This document shows positions 210-33,552 of a stretch of 35,444 nucleotides of DNA, piece by piece. Origin of the DNA: an uncultured Planctomycetales bacterium (GTDB lineage Bacteria > Planctomycetota > UBA1135). The first letter of the stretch is position 1. Each line of letters opens with the position of its first letter. The notes under the pieces were generated by a model, which was not told where the DNA came from, did not search any database, and was given only the letters and a program-made list of their open reading frames with translations. The DNA is taken from positions 1-35,444 of the forward strand of contig CAZJGH010000002.1 in the NCBI GenBank assembly GCA_964545405.1, in the 5' to 3' direction. Position numbers and translations under genes: made by a program.

Positions 210-869
210 CTACCACTTCCATTTCTTCCATAGCTTCTTGTACTCCTTATCGCCGAGCTTCCAGCCATCGGCCCAGAGCTCGAACGTTTTATACTTCTCA
301 AGCGCTTTCTTATCGATACCTAAACTCTTAGCGGATTCATGCCACTCCTCCATCTTGGCCTGCATGTTCCATTCGAAGCCTTCGATCAAGAAGGTGTCAT
401 CGATAAGGTCGACAGTGATGGTGAATATCTCGTCTGACTTCTTCGAGTTCCACCAGACGGTGTGGATCTTCTCTGCCTTCTTCTGCTGCTTCTTCAGCAA
501 CTTGTCGTAGCCTACTTTTTCGTACCACGCCTCCACCGGGGCTACTCCACGGTAATCGTCACGAGCAGCCACCAATAAACCTAGAGGCTTATTTTTTGCG
601 AGCACCAGCTTCTTGCCGTAAGCCTTGCTCAACTCTTTCACAACTTTATCGCCCTGTTTCTCGATGGCTGCGACCAACGAAGCTGCATCCTTGGCAACAC
701 CGGGCGATACATCTTTCAAGGCACGCTCACCACCAGGCATCAAGCGCTGTGCCACCTGATAACTCAACGTAAGGGCGGGGCTGATTTCATACTGATAGGA
801 GTCGGGCCCCTTCTGCATGGCTAACTGTTGCGCCATGCGCAAAACGGTGGCCGCATCGCTGCTGGTCAT
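210..869 (-). CDS. hypothetical protein with Lys/Trp-rich C-terminus (KEYKKLWKKWKW); no family recognised
   Basis: 219-codon ORF. Its ATG overlaps the TGA of the upstream esterase gene (ATGA at 866-869). It ends at TAG 210-212, followed by GAT TAA. It looks more A/T-rich than its neighbours. Confidence 0.55.
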   Translation of the reverse strand: MTSSDAATVLRMAQQLAMQKGPDSYQYEISPALTLSYQVAQRLMPGGERALKDVSPGVAKDAASLVAAIEKQGDKVVKELSKAYGKKLVLAKNKPLGLLVAARDDYRGVAPVEAWYEKVGYDKLLKKQQKKAEKIHTVWWNSKKSDEIFTITVDLIDDTFLIEGFEWNMQAKMEEWHESAKSLGIDKKALEKYKTFELWADGWKLGDKEYKKLWKKWKW

Positions 870-1654
870 GCCTTCGCACCAATCGTGCCTTCGGTGACGC
901 GCGTTGAGTTCGGCCAGTGGTTGTAACCAGGCAGACGCAACAAGGCAACCAGATCCAAACCTTTGCCGTCCAGGTACTCGCGCCCGCCGACGGACTGGCG
1001 GTAAGGCACTACCGGATCCTTGGTGCCGTGCAGGAACAACACCGGCACGTCCTTCATCTTGCGACTGATTTCACTCCAACTCCAAACCCCACTGGCATGG
1101 GCAACCACCCCGCCGAGCATCTCTGGATGCTCTCCAGCAAAGTGCACTACGAAAAAGGAACCTTGGCTATGACCGTATAGGAAAACCTGGTCCACGGAGA
1201 ACCGCTCACGCATCTCCACCAAGAAATCGCGGAAGCTCTCGACGTCGTCTTTCTCCCCCAAGAACAAGCGCGTACCATTTGCGCCAGGGCTGGTGCCGTC
1301 GACCGAAATCAAAATATCGTTGCTACGTAGCGGATTCAGCTTCATGTGATGTTCGGTGAAGTTATTGAAATAACCCCAACGGTAATCGCCACCTGTGCCG
1401 TGCAAAATAACTGTCATTTGCCGAGGCTGCTCTGCGGAATACCCTTCCGGCAGTTGCTACATGTAGCGCAGGTCCCCTGCGGACTTACTCCAATAAGCTG
1501 TTGATGTTTTTGCAGCAGGACTTGGTGCAAGAAATTCCGGCCCGTCTTCCGCTTGAGGCGCAAAGGGCGTGAGAAGCAGTAAGGAAGCAAATAGGAGCAT
1601 TTCCCGATTAATGAAGAAAGAAAACAGAACAGCACGCAACGCGAGCCTTCGCAT
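866..1654 (-). CDS. secreted alpha/beta-hydrolase (carboxylesterase / PHB-depolymerase-like) interrupted by one in-frame TAG at 1457-1459; a pseudogene under code 11 unless TAG is read through
   Basis: ORF 1457-1654 has a signal-peptide-like N-terminus (MRRLALRAVLFSFF...LLLLTPFAPQA). ORF 866-1417 has VILHGTGGD, a GHSQG nucleophile elbow and LHGTKD. The two share one frame. The codons between TAG and the internal ATG read QLPEGYSAEQPRQ, the usual 'LP.GY....P..V.LHG' lead-in of this fold. Confidence 0.6.
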
Positions 1655-1829: not shown

Positions 1830-3545
1830 TCACGGCTTGCTTGTCCAAACAACAGCCCCACCGAATAGCGTGATGACCGGTGCGCAGTTGCGCAACTGAT
1901 CTACCGGAACCGTCATGAGGTCGTCGGAAAAGACCACTAGGTCAGCACGGTATCCTGGAGTTAAACGACCGAGGTCGTGTTCACGGAATGCCGCGTAAGC
2001 CGGCCAGGTCGTCAGCATGTCAAGTGCCTCTTGACGCTGGAGCTGCTGCTCTGGATACCATCCACCATCAGGTTCGCCGTCGCGAGTCGCGCGAGTCACC
2101 GCCGCGATGAACAAGGCGACGGAGTCGAGTCGTTCGACCGGAGCGTCGGAACCTCCTGGGATGATGCAGCCTGCATCACGGAAGCTACGCCATGCATACG
2201 CACCGCGAACGCGTTCGGCTCCGAGTCGGTGCTCTGCCCAGGGCATATCACTGGTTTGGTGTTGCGCTTGCATCGCAGGAATAACTCCGAGAGTGGCGAA
2301 GCGTTCGAAATCGTCGGGGTGCACGACTTGTGCATGCTCGATGCGACACCGCAGGTCGAGTCCCGTCTCAGCCGAGCCCCTTGCCCCTAGTGCCTGCTCA
2401 TATACATCCAAGGCGGTCCTGTTACCGCGATCGCCGATGGCGTGAATCGCGACCTGAAAGCCAGCTTCGGCCGCATCCTTGACGATGCCATGCATGTCTT
2501 CCGGAGAAGTCAGCATCAATCCGATGTTGCCGTGGTCGTCGGAATATTCGTCGAGCAAGGCCGCGCCGCGTGAACCAAGAGCACCATCCGCATAGAGCTT
2601 CACTGACCTGATCGCGAGGGTGCCAGTAGCGCCGACGTCGGCTTGCGGGCCAGCTGCGAACCGACGTTCAAGCAGGGATGCATTCGAGCCATCGAGCATC
2701 TCATGCAGGCGCAAGCGTAAACGCCCCTCGGTCGCCATCGATTCGAGCAACGCCAGGGGGCCGGGGCCGATTCCGGCATCATGCACGGCTGTTATGCCTT
2801 GTTCATGCAAGGCCGCAGTAGCCAAACCGACTGCGCGCTCGACCGCCGCCAAAGTGGTTCCTGGCGCGGCGTTGTGTATCAGGCCCTCGGCATTATCGAC
2901 GAACACACCAGTGGGCTCGCCATCCGCATCACGCTCGATGCGGCCGCCTTCGGGATCGGGAGTCGACTTCGTGACGCCCGCAGCATCCATCGCCGCTTGA
3001 TTGGCAAGGATGGCGTGGCCGTCGATGCGCACCAGCACTACCGGACGATCTGGAATCGCGGCACTCAGATCATGATGTGTCGGGAACGACTTCTCTTGCC
3101 AATCATTCTGATCCCAACCGCGCCCCTGAATCCACTCGCCGGCAGGCAACTCCTCATGACGCTGTCGTGCCAACTCGACCACCTGCTGATATGAAGTAGT
3201 ACCGACCAGATCCAGCCCTTCAAGCGCGCTACCCAAACCTACAAGGTGGGCGTGTCCATCGGCGAAGCCTGGATACACCGGGCGCCCCTCCAAGTCGACC
3301 TTGGTCGTACCTTCCGCTGCCAAGGCCAATATCGCATCGCCTTCGCCGACGGCAAGAACGCGTCCATCAAGTATCGCGATGGCTTCGACGATGCGCTGTG
3401 GTTCATCCTGGGTGTATATGCGCCCGTTAAACAGCACCACGTCGGGAGGTGTGTCGGGTGTGGCATCGCCACCGCAGGATCCGAGAGCAGAAGTGAGGAC
3501 AAGCATCAAGAGGGTGCTCTTCAACATGAAGTATGATGGCAGCAT
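1830..3545 (-). CDS. amidohydrolase-3 family metal-dependent hydrolase (YtcJ-like), probable lipoprotein
   Basis: 571-codon ORF ending TGA. It has a GFADGHAHL metal-binding H-x-H motif and later HAIGD and GSDAP motifs. The N-terminus MLKSTLLMLVLTSALGSCGG has an L-G-S-C lipobox, so the true start is probably the ATG at 3525-3527 rather than 3543-3545. Confidence 0.8.
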   Translation of the reverse strand: MLPSYFMLKSTLLMLVLTSALGSCGGDATPDTPPDVVLFNGRIYTQDEPQRIVEAIAILDGRVLAVGEGDAILALAAEGTTKVDLEGRPVYPGFADGHAHLVGLGSALEGLDLVGTTSYQQVVELARQRHEELPAGEWIQGRGWDQNDWQEKSFPTHHDLSAAIPDRPVVLVRIDGHAILANQAAMDAAGVTKSTPDPEGGRIERDADGEPTGVFVDNAEGLIHNAAPGTTLAAVERAVGLATAALHEQGITAVHDAGIGPGPLALLESMATEGRLRLRLHEMLDGSNASLLERRFAAGPQADVGATGTLAIRSVKLYADGALGSRGAALLDEYSDDHGNIGLMLTSPEDMHGIVKDAAEAGFQVAIHAIGDRGNRTALDVYEQALGARGSAETGLDLRCRIEHAQVVHPDDFERFATLGVIPAMQAQHQTSDMPWAEHRLGAERVRGAYAWRSFRDAGCIIPGGSDAPVERLDSVALFIAAVTRATRDGEPDGGWYPEQQLQRQEALDMLTTWPAYAAFREHDLGRLTPGYRADLVVFSDDLMTVPVDQLRNCAPVITLFGGAVVWTSKP

Positions 3546-4737
3546 GTCATCCTTCTCTCAATACCTGTTCGTCGTTGCTGCCCTGGCGGCCACCAGCGTC
3601 ACCGCTGGAGCCCAGGAGCCGATTGAGGAGGCAGTCCCCGCGGCACCGCTCATTCAGCCTGGAGAACGTGCTGTCCCTGCACAGCCTGGAATGCGCGCAG
3701 TACCCGCGATGCCACTCATGCAGCCTGCGCAGACCAATGACGCCAGCGCCATCTCAGCCGATGCCGCGGCTTACGCTGGACTCAAGGCCGAATACGACTA
3801 GGTCTATTCCGCTTGGGTCAGCGAGATCATCGCCCTCGGCAAGCAAGAAGGGTTCGCAGGACCTTACCCGGAGGACCCTACCGGTGGTTTCTACCCAAGG
3901 TTCCGCACGGTTGCAGATACTGGCAACATCGATGCACGACTGTGGTGCCTGAAGAACTTCCACTACGACCCGACTCCGAGCAAGTATCGGAAACTCTGTT
4001 GGCAGGGTGAAGCCTTCAGCTTGGCCACCGCGTTGCGCGATGACGCCGATGGCAGTGCCAGACTGAGGCAGTCACTCCATTCGGGCCGAATGGTCGGCGG
4101 CGACAGGACCGTGGATAAGGTCCTGGTCTATATCCAGGAAACGACGGGGAGTGATGATGTGCGTCGCGCGACGATGGCCGCCCGCAGTGAACCCATGCTT
4201 GATCCGAATACCGAGTCGTTCCATGTAGGTCTCGAATTGGCAGAGGAAGTGATCGCTACTTGGCCAGACAGCGACGAGGCCGCACGCCTTGAAGGTCTGC
4301 TCAATGCACAGGACAACCTGAAGGTCGGTGGGACTCCTGCCGACTTCACTGGCACCGACGTCGATGGCAAGGAGATCAGTCTCTACGACTATCGTGGCAA
4401 GGTGGTGATCGTCGACTTCTGGGGCTTCTGGTGAGGCCCTTGCAAAGGTGAGCTCCCTCACCTCAAGGCGCTGGTCGAGCGCCACTCTGCAGAAGACTTC
4501 GCGATCCTTGGTATCAACACTGACGGAGACAAGGACAAGTTCCGTAAGGACTGTGAGAAGTTCGGTGTGACCTGGGACAACATCTTCAACGGCTCTACGC
4601 GTGGTGGTGTGCCAGGCGCTTGGGGCGTGACCGGATACCCGACCATGTACATCCTCGATCGTGATGGGGTCATCCGCTACATTGATGCTCGTGGGGAACG
4701 CCTGGAGAAGGTCGTCGATGGGCTCGTCGCCGAATAA
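3544..4737 (+). CDS. secreted TlpA/ResA-like thioredoxin-fold thiol:disulfide oxidoreductase. The frame contains an in-frame TAG (3799-3801) and an in-frame TGA (4432-4434) at the first Cys position of CxxC (candidate selenocysteine)
   Basis: One frame reads MSSFSQYLFVVAALAATSVTAGAQEP (signal peptide) ...LKAEYD-TAG-VYSAWVSEIIALGKQ...GKVVIVDFWGFW-TGA-GPCKGELPHLKAL...ILGINTDGD...GYPTMYILDRDGVIRYIDARG... up to TAA 4735-4737. No ATG/GTG/TTG lies in frame between 3802 and 4020, although that stretch has coding-like GC3. The ORF-track pieces are 3301-3801 and 4021-4434. Confidence 0.65.
4438..4468 (+). promoter_or_regulatory. stem-loop immediately 3' of the in-frame TGA; candidate bacterial SECIS element
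   Basis: CCTTG-caaa-GGTGAG-ctcc-CTCACC-t-CAAGG. That is a 6 bp perfect upper stem (4447-4452 / 4457-4462) and a 5 bp lower stem (4438-4442 / 4464-4468). The apical loop lies about 20 nt after the TGA. The CUCC loop lacks the G usual in bSECIS loops. Confidence 0.4.
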
Positions 4738-4924
4738 GAGGGGCTCCTTCCTCGTGAACGGTGTGATCGCCGCGGTTGTCCTGTTCTACGTCCTGCGCTT
4801 GAGTGCTGGCGACCGTCACCTGATCGACTGGATCGTGATCGCCCTAGTAAGTAGCGCGATCCTCTACAACGTGGTCAAGTTCGGCATGGCCCTTCAAGGC
4901 GCGGGCACCAGCGAAGAAGAGTAG
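4718..4924 (+). CDS. small two-helix membrane protein, hypothetical
   Basis: ATG 4718 gives MGSSPNKRGSFLVNGVIAAVVLFYVLRL...WIVIALVSSAILYNVV... with two hydrophobic spans and strong GC3 bias. It overlaps the 3' end of the TlpA-like gene by 20 nt and ends at TAG 4922-4924. Confidence 0.45.
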   Translation: MGSSPNKRGSFLVNGVIAAVVLFYVLRLSAGDRHLIDWIVIALVSSAILYNVVKFGMALQGAGTSEEE

Positions 4925-29620: not shown

Positions 29621-29985
29621 TGAGTGTCGTCTGGGCGGCCGCGGGTGGTTTCGTGCCACACGAGGAAAGTCCGGGCTCCATAGGGCGCGATGGTGGCTAA
29701 CTGCCACCGAAGGAAACTTCAGGGAAAGTGCCACAGAAAGCAAACCGCCTAAGCGTTTCGGCGCCGGTAAGGGTGAAAGGGTGAGGTAAGAGCTCACCGC
29801 GCGCTTGGTGACAAGCGTGGCAGGGTAAACCCCATCTGGAGAAAGTTCATGTAGGGAGGATAGGTGCGGCCCGCATCGCTTGAACCTCCGGGTAGAACGT
29901 TCGAGGCCTGTGGCAACGCAGGCCCTAGAGAAATGGTCGCTGCCTTTTCGAAGGTACAAGATCCGGCTTATAGGACGACACTCAC
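29621..29985 (+). ncRNA. rnpB: RNase P RNA, bacterial type A
   Basis: P1 pairing GAGTGTCGTC (29622-29631) with GACGACACTC (29975-29984). Universal P4 strands GAGGAAAGTCCGGGCTCC (29662-29679) and ACAAGATCCGGCTTATAGG. Also ACAGAAAGCAAACCGCC, GGTAAGGGTGAAAGGGTGAGGTAAGAGCTCACC and GGGTAAACCCCA. TACAAT at 29610-29615 is a possible -10 element, and a T5 run follows the 3' end. Confidence 0.95.
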
Positions 29986-30150
29986 TTTTTCTCCGACAGA
30001 CGCGGCAACTATTGCATCAGCCTAAGCCACTCGCGTTGACCATCAACATGACACCACAATATCTTGTGCCCAAAATGCAGTCCTAGTTTTCAACAATTCC
30101 CCAACATCTGGTAGTTTTCACTTGCCAGAATCCCAAATATCGGCAGAATC

Positions 30151-31083: not shown

Positions 31084-32721
31084 CTACTCGACAGGCACGG
31101 CAACCACGTTGGACACGAAGTCTATGGGGTTGCCGAGCACGAACGCGAAGTGAAACGTGCGGCCTACCATACTGCTCGCCAAGGGGCCGAGAGTATCTCC
31201 GGTCACCGTCGCGTTGCCAGCTGAATCCAGTTGGCCTGAAAAGCCGACCAAGCCAGGCATCCCGGCGTTCACGCGCGTGTGCCTTGACACAGAATCCCAG
31301 TTGAGCGGCAGTAACATCCCCCCTGGCAGTACAGTTCCAGGACTAGTCCCAGAGATGGTGCCGTACAGGGCATAGTCGCGACCGGCATTGGACTGACCGC
31401 AGACCAAGTTGAAGGTCAAGCTGCCGCCGACCGCAGCGGTAATCGAAGCATCACCGGGCCATAGAGACCTTTCATAGCGTCGAACTTTGAATACTGCGTT
31501 CTGAGAGGGGTTCGGCAGCTGGTTAGTCCAGGTCCAGACCGTATTACCCTGGTCATCAACCTCGAAAATACGTCCACTGGTCCCCTCGCAGATGAGGGTG
31601 TTGCCATTGGCCATGCGTTCCGTACCGGAAATATGGTCGCCGTAGAAACTCGTCAGCGGTGACCCGAAGTAAGTCCAGGTCAGATTAGTCGGACCGAAAG
31701 CGGCACCGGGGGTGAGTGAATAGTTGCCGAGTGCATCTACTGGTGGAGTGAACTCATCTATCGAAGACCAGTTTCCGGTCGGGCGACCTGGACCGTTATT
31801 GAACACCAACAAGTTGCCGCCGCCTGGAAGATCCGCATCGATCCACTGGATGTCATGCTGACTGAACAGCATCTGGTCAGCAGCGGAACCGCGGTCATAA
31901 GCAGCAGGGTTACCCCAGCGATAGAGCAGGTCGCCACCTTTGCCGGAATTACCGCCGCTATGAGATGCAGCTTCGGCAGTGGTGGTGGAGTGGTCGATTA
32001 TCCAGATCTCTGAAAGAGCACGGGAACTCAAGACGATCTGATCGAACTGTTCGTTGTAATCGATGGTGTTGAGATGAATCCAATCGCCATTGCGCGGGAT
32101 CGAATAAGGAAAGTTCAGGTCCACCAGCTGAGGATTATCAGCCACCACTCCGTGGTTTGGTTTCCCTGCATCGAAGTCCTGCACGATGTGATCCCACAGG
32201 TGCCACTCCCAAACGATGGTACCGGTCGATGGCTCGACTTCCATGACCATCTCAGACCAGAACACGCTGCCCGACGTGACTATCGGATCGCGCCCGGCTG
32301 CAAGCGCACCCGAATAGGACATGTCTTCCCAGGCGATCATCAGGATGTTGCCGTTCGGTAACTCCTCGACATCGTGGTGAAGCAAGTGATCATCTGAGGC
32401 ATAAGTGAAATCCCATATCTCAGTACCATCCCACGCCAACTCATGGACTCCGCCGCCGCCGCCACCGAGATTGCTCGCGGCAAAATTCCCATGACGATAA
32501 GTGCGCAAGAGATTGCCGTTCTCCATCAAGTAGACCGCTTGGCCAGGGCGAGCAGTATCAGCCCAAGTGTGGGCGATATTCTGACTGCCATCCAGGAGAT
32601 AAGTGCTGGTTGAGTTGGATGGGGCGAATAACGTCAACCCCTCTTGCGGGCTTGCCTGGGGGCTCGCGGCGACGAGCGGGGCGAGGAGAAAGAGTAAAAA
32701 CATGGTTGGTGAGACCAACAC
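31084..32721 (-). CDS. secreted arylsulfotransferase (ASST)-like beta-propeller protein
   Basis: Signal peptide MFLLFLLAPLVAASPQA. LMENGNLL, HHDVEELPNGNILMIAWE, WIHLNTIDYN and NTLICEG motifs are typical of the ASST family. Ends at TAG 31084-31086. Confidence 0.65.
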   Translation of the reverse strand: MLVSPTMFLLFLLAPLVAASPQASPQEGLTLFAPSNSTSTYLLDGSQNIAHTWADTARPGQAVYLMENGNLLRTYRHGNFAASNLGGGGGGVHELAWDGTEIWDFTYASDDHLLHHDVEELPNGNILMIAWEDMSYSGALAAGRDPIVTSGSVFWSEMVMEVEPSTGTIVWEWHLWDHIVQDFDAGKPNHGVVADNPQLVDLNFPYSIPRNGDWIHLNTIDYNEQFDQIVLSSRALSEIWIIDHSTTTAEAASHSGGNSGKGGDLLYRWGNPAAYDRGSAADQMLFSQHDIQWIDADLPGGGNLLVFNNGPGRPTGNWSSIDEFTPPVDALGNYSLTPGAAFGPTNLTWTYFGSPLTSFYGDHISGTERMANGNTLICEGTSGRIFEVDDQGNTVWTWTNQLPNPSQNAVFKVRRYERSLWPGDASITAAVGGSLTFNLVCGQSNAGRDYALYGTISGTSPGTVLPGGMLLPLNWDSVSRHTRVNAGMPGLVGFSGQLDSAGNATVTGDTLGPLASSMVGRTFHFAFVLGNPIDFVSNVVAVPVE

Positions 32722-32757
32722 TAAGTTAACCGATTGGTTCTGGAGCGCCAGTCGGCC

Positions 32758-33552
32758 CTAATCGATCAAGGCAGTGTTGCCACTGAAAACCCTAGCGCTG
32801 GAGTCCCTTATCCAGCCTATCAGGCAAATCCCAGCAGCATCGGCGGTTTCTACCGCAAGCGAAGTTGGCATGCCTATGCCGGCCACCAAGGGAATGCCCG
32901 CCAACCAGGCCTTCTGCACCAGTTCAAAGCTGATTCTCCCGCTCAACAACAACCCAAGGGGATTGTTCAGGGGGTATTTGTCGGCCAACAGACGGGCACC
33001 CAGCAGCTTATCGACGGAGTTGTGCCGTCCGACGTCTTCTGCGACATCAAGCAGATCGCTGCCAGCGGTGTAATCCCAAATAGCCGCCCCATGACATCCA
33101 GCAGTCTTGGCGAAGAGTGGTTGCCGCTGTCCAAGTTGATCGACCGCCGCGAGCAATGACTCAAGGCTAAGGCTGTCGGGTGCTGGTGCAGCGAGCGGAG
33201 GGCAATCCTTGTGAAGCTCTGAAATCGACTGGGTACCGCAAATGCCGCAAGCGGATGTGCCTGGACTAAGGCGTGGCGACAGACTGATGCCCTCTGCCAA
33301 AGCCGCGTTGACGATATTGTCAGCGGGATTGCCAGTCTGCGGATCAGCACATACATCCAATGCCAGTAGGTCGTCGCGATTATGGACCAAACCTTCGGCG
33401 CACAGGAAACCGGCTACCAGATCTCGATCACGCCCTGGTGTCCGCATCAGGACGGCGTAGGAGGTACCTCGAACCCTGATTTCCAAGGGCTCTTCGACGG
33501 CAAAGGCTAGCTGGGGCAAGTAGGAGTCAGACATTCCCTTCGCCAAGACCAT
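32758..33552 (-). CDS. fdhD: formate dehydrogenase accessory sulfurtransferase FdhD
   Basis: Active-site loop GTSACGICG and the VGRHNSVDKLLG motif. 264 codons. Ends at TAG 32758-32760. Confidence 0.85.
   Translation of the reverse strand: MVLAKGMSDSYLPQLAFAVEEPLEIRVRGTSYAVLMRTPGRDRDLVAGFLCAEGLVHNRDDLLALDVCADPQTGNPADNIVNAALAEGISLSPRLSPGTSACGICGTQSISELHKDCPPLAAPAPDSLSLESLLAAVDQLGQRQPLFAKTAGCHGAAIWDYTAGSDLLDVAEDVGRHNSVDKLLGARLLADKYPLNNPLGLLLSGRISFELVQKAWLAGIPLVAGIGMPTSLAVETADAAGICLIGWIRDSSARVFSGNTALID

Follow-up and report, generated by a model that had tools for sequence, protein, structure and literature searches.

A probable selenocysteine codon in the redox motif of a putatively exported TlpA/ResA-like redoxin from Planctomycetota

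Known relatives and the gene in the window

Redoxins with selenocysteine (Sec) in their active site have been described before. The 'Prx-like thiol:disulfide oxidoreductase' or 'Prx-like 1' proteins (pfam00578, UxxC motif), reported by Zhang, Gladyshev and colleagues, are an established selenoprotein family (PMC1794560, PMC2398784, PMC13188914). Among planctomycetes, Kim et al. 2016 listed Sec candidates of strain P1 described as 'thiol-disulfide isomerase-like thioredoxin' and split into two adjacent genes (PMC4807772, Table S9). The closest NCBI match of these candidates has Cys, bSECISearch reported no SECIS for them, and a selA/selB/selD set was demonstrated in the strain (PMC4807772). As for the RNA signal, the bSECIS model specifies a loop of 3-9 nt, a stem of 4-16 bp, a G in the first two loop positions and an MFE <= -7.5 kcal/mol. 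The distance from the UGA to the apical loop is given as 16-37 nt for 'most' elements (PMC13188914).

The gene described here lies in a 35,444-nt stretch of planctomycete DNA, referred to below as the window. Its features are listed in Table 1. It very probably encodes an exported thiol-disulfide oxidoreductase whose nucleophile is a Sec specified by an in-frame UGA and decoded via a downstream bSECIS. The gene adds a member to a known family type, the Prx-like/TlpA-like UxxC selenoproteins, and the principles of selenoprotein biology are unchanged by it. An earlier note on this DNA, made from the sequence, had pointed out that UxxC thioredoxin-fold selenoproteins were already known, in agreement with the published Prx-like family (PMC2398784, PMC1794560).

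Table 1. Positions of the gene, its parts and its RNA elements in the window
Feature	Position	Strand	Basis or remark
Full gene, inferred from orthologues	3526..4737	+	403 codons; interrupted by TAG 3799-3801 and TGA 4432-4434
Predicted Sec-type signal peptide (MKYDGSMSSFSQYLFVVAALAATSVTAGA ahead of QEP)	3526..3612	+	Hydrophobic core and A-x-A, by inspection
In-frame TAG (premature stop), private to the window copy	3799..3801	+	Orthologue codons here are sense
All-alpha helical-repeat N-terminal domain, function unassigned	3802..4317	+	AlphaFold2 model
Thioredoxin-fold redoxin domain (TlpA/ResA-like)	4339..4683	+	Pfam PF00578, PF08534 and PF13905, all above cut-offs
Probable Sec codon (UGA) for the nucleophile, residue 1 of the redox motif U-G-P-C	4432..4434	+	Orthologues and Cys-homologue alignment
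Putative SECIS footprint, 17 codons (51 nt)	4435..4485	+	Near absence of synonymous change in orthologues
TGC, resolving Cys of the UxxC motif	4441..4443	+	Column C306, invariant in alignments A1 and A2
Hairpin h1, AGGUGAG-CUCC-CUCACCU, 7 bp	4446..4463	+	4-nt loop, beginning 18 nt 3' of the UGA
Hairpin hB, GGCGCU-GGUCG-AGCGCC, 6 bp	4467..4483	+	5-nt loop, beginning 38 nt 3' of the UGA
True stop TAA	4735..4737	+	Equivalent end position in orthologues

From the N- to the C-terminus, the gene specifies a signal peptide, a Pro/Ala-rich linker, an alpha-helical domain and a TlpA/ResA-like thioredoxin-fold domain. The signal peptide is conserved in eight database homologues (P0001-P0005 and P0007-P0009) and suggests that the protein is exported. 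The orthologues P0001-P0005 share the MKYDG.../signal-peptide start and run uninterrupted as far as ...DFWGFW. The gene order around the locus is common to four of the orthologous loci (L001, L005, L006 and L008). Genes for cytochrome c or copper chaperones are absent from the neighbourhood, both in the window and in the region of these four loci. The N-terminal domain was modelled as nine helices with a pLDDT of ~90 across residues 31-160 (AlphaFold2, alignment A4). It has no Pfam match, and a fold search of the PDB gave weak TPR-like matches, none with E <= 0.001. When the two parts of the frame are joined across the TGA, the protein matches AhpC-TSA (PF00578) at 70.4 bits (cut-off 26) and Redoxin (PF08534) at 57 bits (cut-off 26.6). 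Both matches cover aa 272-391 and span the TGA without interruption, and the Thioredoxin_8 match is likewise one uninterrupted stretch across it.

The resemblance to the Prx-like family is clear in several respects. In both cases, the protein is a thioredoxin-fold redoxin with PF00578 as best Pfam match and Sec first in UxxC, the Sec aligns with Cys in many homologues, and standard callers break the gene in two. In contrast to that family, the protein carries an all-alpha N-terminal domain of ~170 residues without Pfam match, a predicted signal peptide and an invariant DFWGFW-U-GPC, and most of its occurrences are in Planctomycetota MAGs. The Prx-like assignment is a provisional one, made on the shared Pfam domain and motif; the reference sequence of that family is WP_010940744.1. 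The extracytoplasmic thiol-disulfide reductases TlpA (Bradyrhizobium), ResA (Bacillus subtilis) and CcmG/DsbE have the same fold. They also share the motif layout (W-C-x-P-C after beta-1, G(I/V)N.D and the cis-Pro Y-P-T) and the predicted export signal. The closest PDB sequence relatives of the redoxin domain are 2lja, ResA (4nmu, 1.8e-18; 1st9) and TlpA (1jfu, 3.4e-12). The differences are that Sec replaces the nucleophilic Cys and that the helical domain is additional. The protein is not considered a ResA or TlpA equivalog because its NCBIfam scores are far under the cut-offs (ResA NF002854, 76.4 bits vs 170; TlpA NF047696, 57.7 bits vs 230).

Two NCBIfam families of Sec-containing ResA/TlpA-like redoxins were also considered. 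The protein is a member of neither the ResA-like WAxxUGC motif-containing proteins (NF041054, 25.7 bits vs a cut-off of 300) nor the TUGYCR motif thioredoxin-fold selenoproteins (NF053656, 21.3 bits vs 100). Its motif is WGFW-U-GPC, not WAxxUGC or TUGYCR. The strain P1 candidates belong to the same phylum and protein type, a likeness that is drawn from their published description.

The in-frame TGA and its conservation

The TGA directly follows ...GKVVIVDFWGFW, and the same frame goes on GPCKGELPHLKALVERHSAEDFAILGINTDGD...GYPTMYILDRDGVIRYIDARG... to the terminal TAA. The translation thus bears out the earlier note, which had described a frame open through the TGA. The codon is conserved. It is present in 11/11 orthologous loci fetched, all from planctomycete MAGs and 36-67% identical, and the orthologue DNA 3' of it holds 101-110 conserved in-frame codons that make up a complete redoxin fold. 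Assemblies that carry an orthologue include GCA_024230235.1, GCA_024229395.1 and GCA_030595825.1. It is kept in L001-L015 and L017, of which L014, L015 and L017 are further Sec forms found by genome scan at 33-38% identity. Moreover, soil, marine and freshwater metagenomes contain at least 120 contigs with FWGFW-TGA-GPC, all of them with the frame open. The subfamily is carried mainly by Planctomycetota MAGs, and in two loci (L010 and L011) a second UGPC redoxin adjoins the orthologue.

Homologues with Cys indicate what the codon stands for. The TGA column corresponds to the first Cys of CxxC in the Cys-containing proteins P0011 and P0012, and the codon in this column is TGC or TGT in L016 and L019-L030. 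The genome scan also returned homologues that share the N-terminal domain but have Cys (L016, L019, L020, L022 and L023), which align in the same way. The placement of the TGA at the first Cys of CxxC in a TlpA/ResA-like redoxin, as first proposed from the sequence, is supported by the alignment to Cys homologues, in which the thioredoxin fold is continuous across the site. The residue inserted at the UGA is probably Sec, and the catalytic nucleophile would then be selenocysteine in the motif W-U-G-P-C. In the literature, experimental Se incorporation for the DFWGFW-U-GPC subfamily was not found.

Gene callers treat the codon as a stop. Nine homologue proteins of 39-60% identity all terminate exactly at ...DFWGFW, and all database copies examined are truncated 'hypothetical protein' entries with this ending and no domain match. 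The expectation that a standard caller would split or truncate the gene was thus correct. Recognition of the Sec codon restores the full redoxin and enlarges the Planctomycetota selenoproteome. The UGA recoding is site-specific and not a global reassignment, because TGA ends 11/24 confident genes of the window and is their commonest stop; TAG ends 8/24.

The window itself holds no selA, selB, selC or selD, according to Pfam and, for tRNA-Sec, ARAGORN, as the earlier note had stated. ARAGORN found no tRNA-Sec in ~982 kb of fetched loci, which consist of short flanks only and are uninformative for that reason. Complete selA/selB/selD sets are known from some Planctomycetes (PMC4807772). The fdhD gene to which attention had been drawn is indeed present at 32758-33552 (PF02634). 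It is irrelevant here, and no formate dehydrogenase adjoins it.

RNA structure downstream of the UGA

The sequence 3' of the TGA is constrained at the RNA level. In five orthologues, 15/16 degenerate codons that are invariant at the amino acid level are also nucleotide-identical in the footprint, vs 16/75 in the flanking sequence (Fisher p = 7e-8). The native fold of the footprint is more stable than that of synonymous recodings (p = 0.0375). Sec and Cys forms also differ in downstream folding, with -21.8 vs -15.1 kcal/mol (p = 5e-9).

A single hairpin at 4438-4468 had been proposed in the earlier note. These 31 nt do fold in isolation (-14.0 kcal/mol, z = -3.95), and the upper stem GGUGAG/CUCACC recurs in relatives in shifting registers. 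However, conservation does not extend to the lower stem CCUUG/CAAGG, and the MFE fold of the 56-nt context consists of two adjacent hairpins, h1 and hB. In a fixed register, the single hairpin was rejected: 49.6% of cells pair across 55 relatives, which is within the range of slid controls, and a slide of -3 does better.

Hairpin h1 (-8.8 kcal/mol, z = -3.6) corresponds to the upper stem of the hairpin first proposed, which was retained as a lineage-specific structure. It exceeds synonymous recodings in stability (p = 0.014). An equivalent is found in most relatives, in a register that varies between lineages. In this region, Sec forms fold at -9.8 vs -4.1 kcal/mol for Cys forms (p = 3e-9). 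Hairpin hB (-11.9 kcal/mol, z = -3.5; recoding p = 0.033) shows covariation in addition. Pairing holds in 77.3% of cells over 55 sequences, vs 22-47% in slid controls, compensatory changes are seen in 7/8 pairs, and the observed score was reached by 0/500 shuffles. The loop residues G43 U44 are present in 53/55 sequences. Because the covariation and the conserved GU belong to hB, this hairpin is taken as the likelier SelB contact and is the more likely candidate for the SelB-binding loop.

Both hairpins agree with the bSECIS model in loop size, stem length and MFE, and each departs from it in one respect. The CUCC loop of h1 has no G, as had been noted earlier, and its spacing of 18 nt is in range. 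The loop of hB, which had been overlooked, supplies the G and fits the G[G/U] pattern (GGUCG); its spacing is 1 nt beyond 16-37 nt. Agreement with the loop pattern depends on which of the two hairpins is functional. Like the E. coli fdhF bSECIS and the general model, the locus has a stable hairpin directly downstream of the UGA inside the coding sequence, but there are two hairpins instead of one. Rfam was of little help. A gathering-threshold scan of the whole window returned RNase P RNA alone, and a permissive scan of 4380-4560 gave chance-level matches only, Rfam being without a usable bacterial SECIS model.

In the proposed mechanism, the UGA would be read as Sec and not as a stop because the mRNA at 4435-4485 would form a bacterial SECIS. 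SelB with GTP and Sec-tRNA(Sec) would bind this element and bring Sec into the A site. Hairpin h1 lies where the minimal SECIS of E. coli fdhF is found, while hB, with its GGUCG loop, would be the likelier point of SelB contact; on the covariation data, SelB presumably binds hB.

RNAalifold found no consensus structure for all 91 distinct 'UGPC...PH..LV' sequences. This is explained by the mutually exclusive hairpins mixed in the family, and the sequences were hence classified first. At least three hairpin arrangements are seen in the family and its paralogues. In other lineages of the same protein family, a hairpin hA (CACGAGC-GGUC-GCUCGUG) has its GGUC loop 31 nt after the UGA (+35). The second architecture is the h1 and hB pair. 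In distant Sec-form paralogues (L033, L037, L038 and L051), textbook bSECIS hairpins bear GGU/GUU loops 20-22 nt after the UGA (+23). It is conceivable, though on balance doubtful, that genes of the window type use a non-canonical two-hairpin bSECIS, with the GU loop of hB 38-39 nt after the UGA and h1 as a spacer or positioning element, and that the same family switched among at least three SECIS architectures. The 'no SECIS' result for the strain P1 candidates fits the departures of the present hairpins from the model, and a two-hairpin bSECIS, if true, would explain it for planctomycete TlpA-like candidates. The family offers a clean natural dataset on the drift of a bacterial SECIS inside coding sequence, for which the standard bSECIS model is borderline.

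Competing readings and the premature TAG

The output of gene callers corresponds to a reading in which the TGA is an ordinary stop and two products are made, a helical protein ending in ...DFWGFW and a small C-terminal fragment. Databases do list the pieces separately (P0001-P0009, and downstream calls of 62-100 aa in L005, L008, L010 and L011), and no stop is more frequent in the window than TGA. Nevertheless, the cut would fall inside the thioredoxin fold, between the two residues of the redox motif, neither piece would be a functional redoxin, and the Cys-containing homologues are continuous at this point. Over 130 sequences keep the frame conserved beyond the TGA without sharing a conserved start codon there, and the RNA structure constraint lies exactly at the site. 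Two separate products are thus very improbable. Slightly more room, yet still little, is left for a UGA read through without Sec, for instance by a near-cognate Trp or Cys tRNA with stimulation by the downstream hairpins and independently of SelB. This would suit the lack of sel genes in the window and of tRNA-Sec in the fetched loci, as well as the incomplete fit of the hairpins to the bSECIS model. On the other hand, the recoded position is that of the redox-active Cys, and Sec/Cys exchange is the classic selenoprotein signature (PMC1794560). Trp as nucleophile would abolish catalysis, the four distant paralogues bear textbook bSECIS hairpins, and class-I relatives carry the GGUC loop.

A sequencing error or private mutation of TGC/TGT in this contig has next to no probability. 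Two further apparent lesions in the window, a frameshift near 884 and the TAG at 3799, lend the idea some plausibility. However, orthologues from independent assemblies and studies all carry this same TGA, as do the metagenome contigs, and on the comparative data this reading can be regarded as already refuted. Decoding of the UGA as Sec remains the best explanation for the family.

In correction of the earlier note, the gene starts at 3526, and it carries an in-frame TAG that had been overlooked. The TAG cuts the gene after codon 91. At this site, the orthologues have ordinary, variable sense codons (Ala GCN, Lys AAA, Thr and Arg CGC). The next in-frame start 3' of it is TTG 4021, beyond which no signal peptide is found. 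The window copy as sequenced would therefore not make the enzyme. It may be dead or mis-sequenced, as the TAG is absent from the orthologues. Pyrrolysine or another read-through of the TAG was rejected on account of the variable sense codons of the orthologues and of the frequency of TAG as a stop here.

The window copy may be a recently inactivated selenoprotein pseudogene, at odds somewhat short of even. On this reading, the TAG is real, translation ends past the signal peptide and linker, and the UGA/SECIS part is an intact relic. The TAG stands in frame where all orthologues carry a sense codon, TAG is an ordinary stop in the window, and the first in-frame start after it, TTG 4021, is not followed by a signal peptide. 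A nearby gene 2.9 kb off is also broken by a 1-nt deletion. Furthermore, divergence from L006/L008 is 7-8 percentage points higher for the window copy than for L001, the largest such gap among 5 genes compared, and the window copy deviates at 7/126 otherwise invariant columns vs 0-2 for the others. Against inactivation, the 311 codons past the TAG are open save for the Sec UGA, every deviation at the invariant columns is conservative (R>K, N>D, V>I and similar), and the SECIS region is nucleotide-identical to that of the orthologues. A single-base assembly error would look alike. The Sec reading of the UGA concerns the family as a whole, and the extra TAG matters when the window gene is counted as functional. 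The 1-nt deletion near 884 frameshifts a neighbouring gene ~2.9-3 kb away.

The redoxin gene and its in-frame UGA

The frame encoding ...YDYRGKVVIVDFWGFW runs directly into a TGA at 4432-4434 and continues beyond it as GPCKGELPHLKALVERHSAEDFAILGINTDGD...GYPTMYILDRDGVIRYIDARGERLEKVVDGLVAE up to a TAA at 4735-4737, as the earlier note had correctly read from the translation. With Cys substituted for the TGA, the joined protein matches the Pfam families AhpC-TSA (70.4 bits), Redoxin (57 bits) and Thioredoxin_8 over a single stretch, aa 272-391, unbroken across the TGA. By sequence, the solved structures nearest to it are 2lja, 4nmu, 1st9 and 1jfu, all thiol-disulfide oxidoreductases of the ResA/TlpA type. 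Both results bear out the proposed TlpA/ResA-like redoxin. The gene start was set by the starts of the orthologues. The N-terminus (MKYDGSMSSFSQYLFVVAALAATSVTAGA, then QEP) is, by inspection, a predicted signal peptide. Next come a Pro/Ala-rich linker and a confidently predicted helical-repeat domain (pLDDT about 90) that falls in no Pfam family and whose structural matches are all weak and TPR-like. Within the family, this domain carries the conserved motifs ARLWCL(R/K)(N/Y)F and W(Q/K)GEA.SLATA. Immediately 3' of the gene lies a small hydrophobic ORF without a Pfam match.

Comparisons with relatives indicate that the UGA is decoded. Used as the query of a homology search, the joined protein retrieved nine proteins (39-60% identity), all nine ending exactly at ...DFWGFW and none with a Pfam domain. 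In the contigs fetched for these homologues (L001-L011, several syntenic with the window), the stop is TGA in every case, and the frame past it runs for 101-110 codons with a conserved second half, GPC(K/R)GE(L/F)PH...GYPT...DG.GVIR. Scanning one genome from each GTDB species revealed further Sec forms, i.e., with TGA at the first position of the motif, in Planctomycetota MAGs (L014, L015, L017; 33-38% identity), and more distant Sec-form paralogues in Phycisphaerales and Armatimonadota. Cys forms (TGC or TGT there) with an N-terminal domain identical in type were also found (L016, L019, L020, L022, L023). At the DNA level, the pattern FWGFW-TGA-GPC occurs in at least 120 metagenome contigs, and the frame is open past the TGA in all 120. 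The protein alignment (A1) suggested in the note places the TGA column on the first Cys of CxxC in the Cys homologues P0011 and P0012. TGA is the most frequent ordinary stop in the window (11/24 genes); therefore, the recoding is site-specific.

Coordinates of the features described (window positions unless a fetched locus, L, is named)
Feature	Position	Strand	Remarks
Redoxin gene start (ATG)	3526	+	from orthologue starts
N-terminal domain	3802-4317	+	all-alpha helical repeat, ~170 residues
h1 hairpin	4446-4463	+	AGGUGAG-CUCC-CUCACCU, -8.8 kcal/mol
hB hairpin	4467-4483	+	GGCGCU-GGUCG-AGCGCC, -11.9 kcal/mol
Small ORF	4760-4924	+	54 codons from GTG
Alpha/beta-hydrolase gene, broken	210-1417	-	two ORFs, 866-1417 and 210-869; 1-nt deletion near 884
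fdhD (FdhD/NarQ)	32758-33552	-	PF02634; adjoins arylsulfotransferase-family gene (PF05935), pair spanning 31084-33552
RNase P RNA, bacterial class A, full length	29623-29986	+	Rfam RF00010, 298 bits
Second Sec redoxin	L010 1458-2588; L011 3137-4267		TGA at 1689 (L010) and 3368 (L011); ...LVEFWATW-U-GPCIASMPH...
Cys/Sec pair	L037/L038		Cys 3121/3124, Sec 3734
Cys/Sec pair	L033		Cys 3187, Sec 3824
Cys/Sec pair	L051		Cys 3097, Sec 3872
Cys/Sec pair	L015		Sec 816, Cys 3853
Cys/Sec pair	L017		Sec 3550, Cys 4782

The RNA element downstream of the UGA

Synonymous sites were compared among five orthologues whose proteins are 61-67% identical to that of the window copy. Over codons +1 to +17 (4435-4485), 15 of the 16 amino-acid-invariant degenerate codons are nucleotide-identical, versus 16/75 in the flanks (Fisher p = 7e-8). 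To judge from the sequences, these frozen codons are the footprint of a functional RNA. Folded in context, the region forms two adjacent hairpins, h1 and hB, both more stable than synonymous recodings with the same peptide and the codon usage of the window (p = 0.014 and 0.033, respectively). Mean downstream MFE is -21.8 kcal/mol in Sec forms versus -15.1 kcal/mol in Cys forms sharing the FWG[FY]WC motif (p = 5e-9), and the difference also holds for each hairpin region taken separately.

Covariation of hB was assessed in 55 distinct sequences without the class-I motif (...PHERSLV...), in a fixed register pairing columns 35-42 with 46-53 (T of TGA = 1). Pairing reaches 77.3% of cells versus 22-47% in slid controls. 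Compensatory changes occur in 7/8 pairs, e.g., GCG...CGC to ACG...CGU or AAG...C to AAA...U, in which synonymous third positions compensate, and none of 500 shuffles reached the observed score. The loop G43 U44 is kept in 53 of the 55 sequences. Most relatives have a hairpin at the place of h1, with both register (i+j = 40 to 48) and loop varying. The hairpin proposed in the note (4438-4468) has h1 as its upper stem, but the exact structure with the lower stem CCUUG/CAAGG is not conserved; tried as a fixed structure, it has 49.6% of its cells paired, which does not exceed the values of slid controls. The proposed SECIS spans two hairpins, and the better supported of them, hB, had gone unseen in the note. 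We infer that hB is more likely the SelB contact than h1, which would then act as an accessory or positioning hairpin.

The bSECIS model requires a loop of 3-9 nt, a stem of 4-16 bp, G in the first two loop positions, a distance of 16-37 nt from the UGA and MFE <= -7.5 kcal/mol (PMC13188914). Against this model, h1 fails solely on the loop G, the very point on which the note had hedged, and hB solely on spacing, by 1 nt. No Rfam family matches the element downstream of the TGA. A large part of the family has a different hairpin, exclusive of h1/hB: CACGAGC-GGUC-GCUCGUG, of 7 bp, whose GGUC loop occupies +35 to +38 (31 nt past the UGA). This hairpin was found in 36 distinct metagenome and genome loci with ...PHERSLV... 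(e.g., L017, L068, L070, L073), where Arg-Ser is always CGG UCG, giving the GGUC loop. This is a SECIS solution unlike that of the window within one protein family. A sister subfamily, ...EFWGFW-U-GPCxxGSLP... (26 distinct metagenome contigs, including L056, L060, L063 and L066), is extended at the C-terminus by about 310 aa and has a small hairpin of the classic kind, CCGGCA-GUU-UGCCGG, some 20 nt past the UGA. In more distant paralogues, the hairpins are textbook ones, their GGU or GUU loops lying at +23 to +27. This SECIS heterogeneity, together with the borderline geometry, is a mildly novel angle.

Integrity of the window copy and Sec machinery

A premature stop in the window copy goes beyond the earlier note. 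As sequenced, the gene is cut after codon 91 because of an in-frame TAG at 3799-3801 (between ...KAEYD and VYSAWV...), a normal stop here (8/24 genes). All orthologues are continuous at this codon, with GCN, AAA or CGC instead, and the first in-frame start after the TAG is TTG 4021. The copy may be a recent pseudogene, or the TAG may be an assembly error. Few further signs of decay are seen: the 311 codons after the TAG are open, Sec UGA excepted, and only 7 of the 126 columns invariant in six other family members are changed, all seven conservatively. The gene is somewhat more diverged than predicted from its neighbours. An alpha/beta-hydrolase gene 2.9 kb upstream, which in orthologous contigs is one uninterrupted ORF of 402 aa (L001 6868-8076), is also broken, a second damaged gene less than 3 kb from the TAG. 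Nine other neighbour genes compared are intact. The two lesions could be local sequence errors or real gene decay.

As the note had cautioned, selA, selB, selC and selD were not found in the 35,444-nt window. About 1 Mb of flanks of the fetched loci also yielded no tRNA-Sec. Complete Sec-insertion gene sets have been described in some Planctomycetes, namely strains P1 and P2, Gemmata and Isosphaera; strain P1 also has selenoprotein candidates, split "thiol-disulfide isomerase-like thioredoxin" genes, in which bSECISearch detected no SECIS (PMC4807772). The fdhD gene, which the note had linked to formate dehydrogenases, is real but has no bearing on Sec. Its neighbour is an arylsulfotransferase, and the window contains neither a formate dehydrogenase nor the catalytic subunit of any other molybdoenzyme.

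Family placement and related redoxins

The note's interpretation is right in substance, including its remark that the class was already known. Thioredoxin-fold UxxC selenoproteins of pfam00578 are an established, abundant family, "Prx-like thiol:disulfide oxidoreductase" or "Prx-like 1" (PMC2398784, PMC1794560, PMC13188914), with 225 Sec members and 2,740 Cys homologues in GOS alone (PMC2398784). The window protein agrees with it in domain (pfam00578) and motif (UxxC). With the class already known, this is a new member rather than a new class; the value of the finding is mainly for annotation. The protein scores far below the cut-offs of ResA and TlpA and of the NCBIfam Sec redoxin families WAxxUGC_long and TUGYCR; it is neither an equivalog of the first two nor a member of the other two. 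Peculiar to its subfamily are the invariant DFWGFW-U-GPC, the all-alpha, weakly TPR-like N-terminal domain and the occurrence in Planctomycetota.

L010 and L011 have another redoxin gene, ...EFWATW-U-GPC..., next to the family orthologue on its upstream side; hence, these organisms have more than one such gene. In this second gene, the thioredoxin domain comes first, followed by a helical TPR-like tail; gene callers divide it into 60-aa and 292-aa genes, and it falls outside NCBIfam NF041054. In several Armatimonadota, Phycisphaerales and Planctomycetota genomes, one contig bears both a Cys form and a Sec form of these redoxins, side by side. Selenium-dependent switching is known for other Sec/Cys pairs and, by analogy, could operate here. 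Finally, P0010 (ENA contig, 1411 nt), called from just past the Sec codon (MGEMPHLKALVERH...), runs on into a carboxypeptidase-regulatory-like domain (PF13620) and is a domain-fusion variant of the family.
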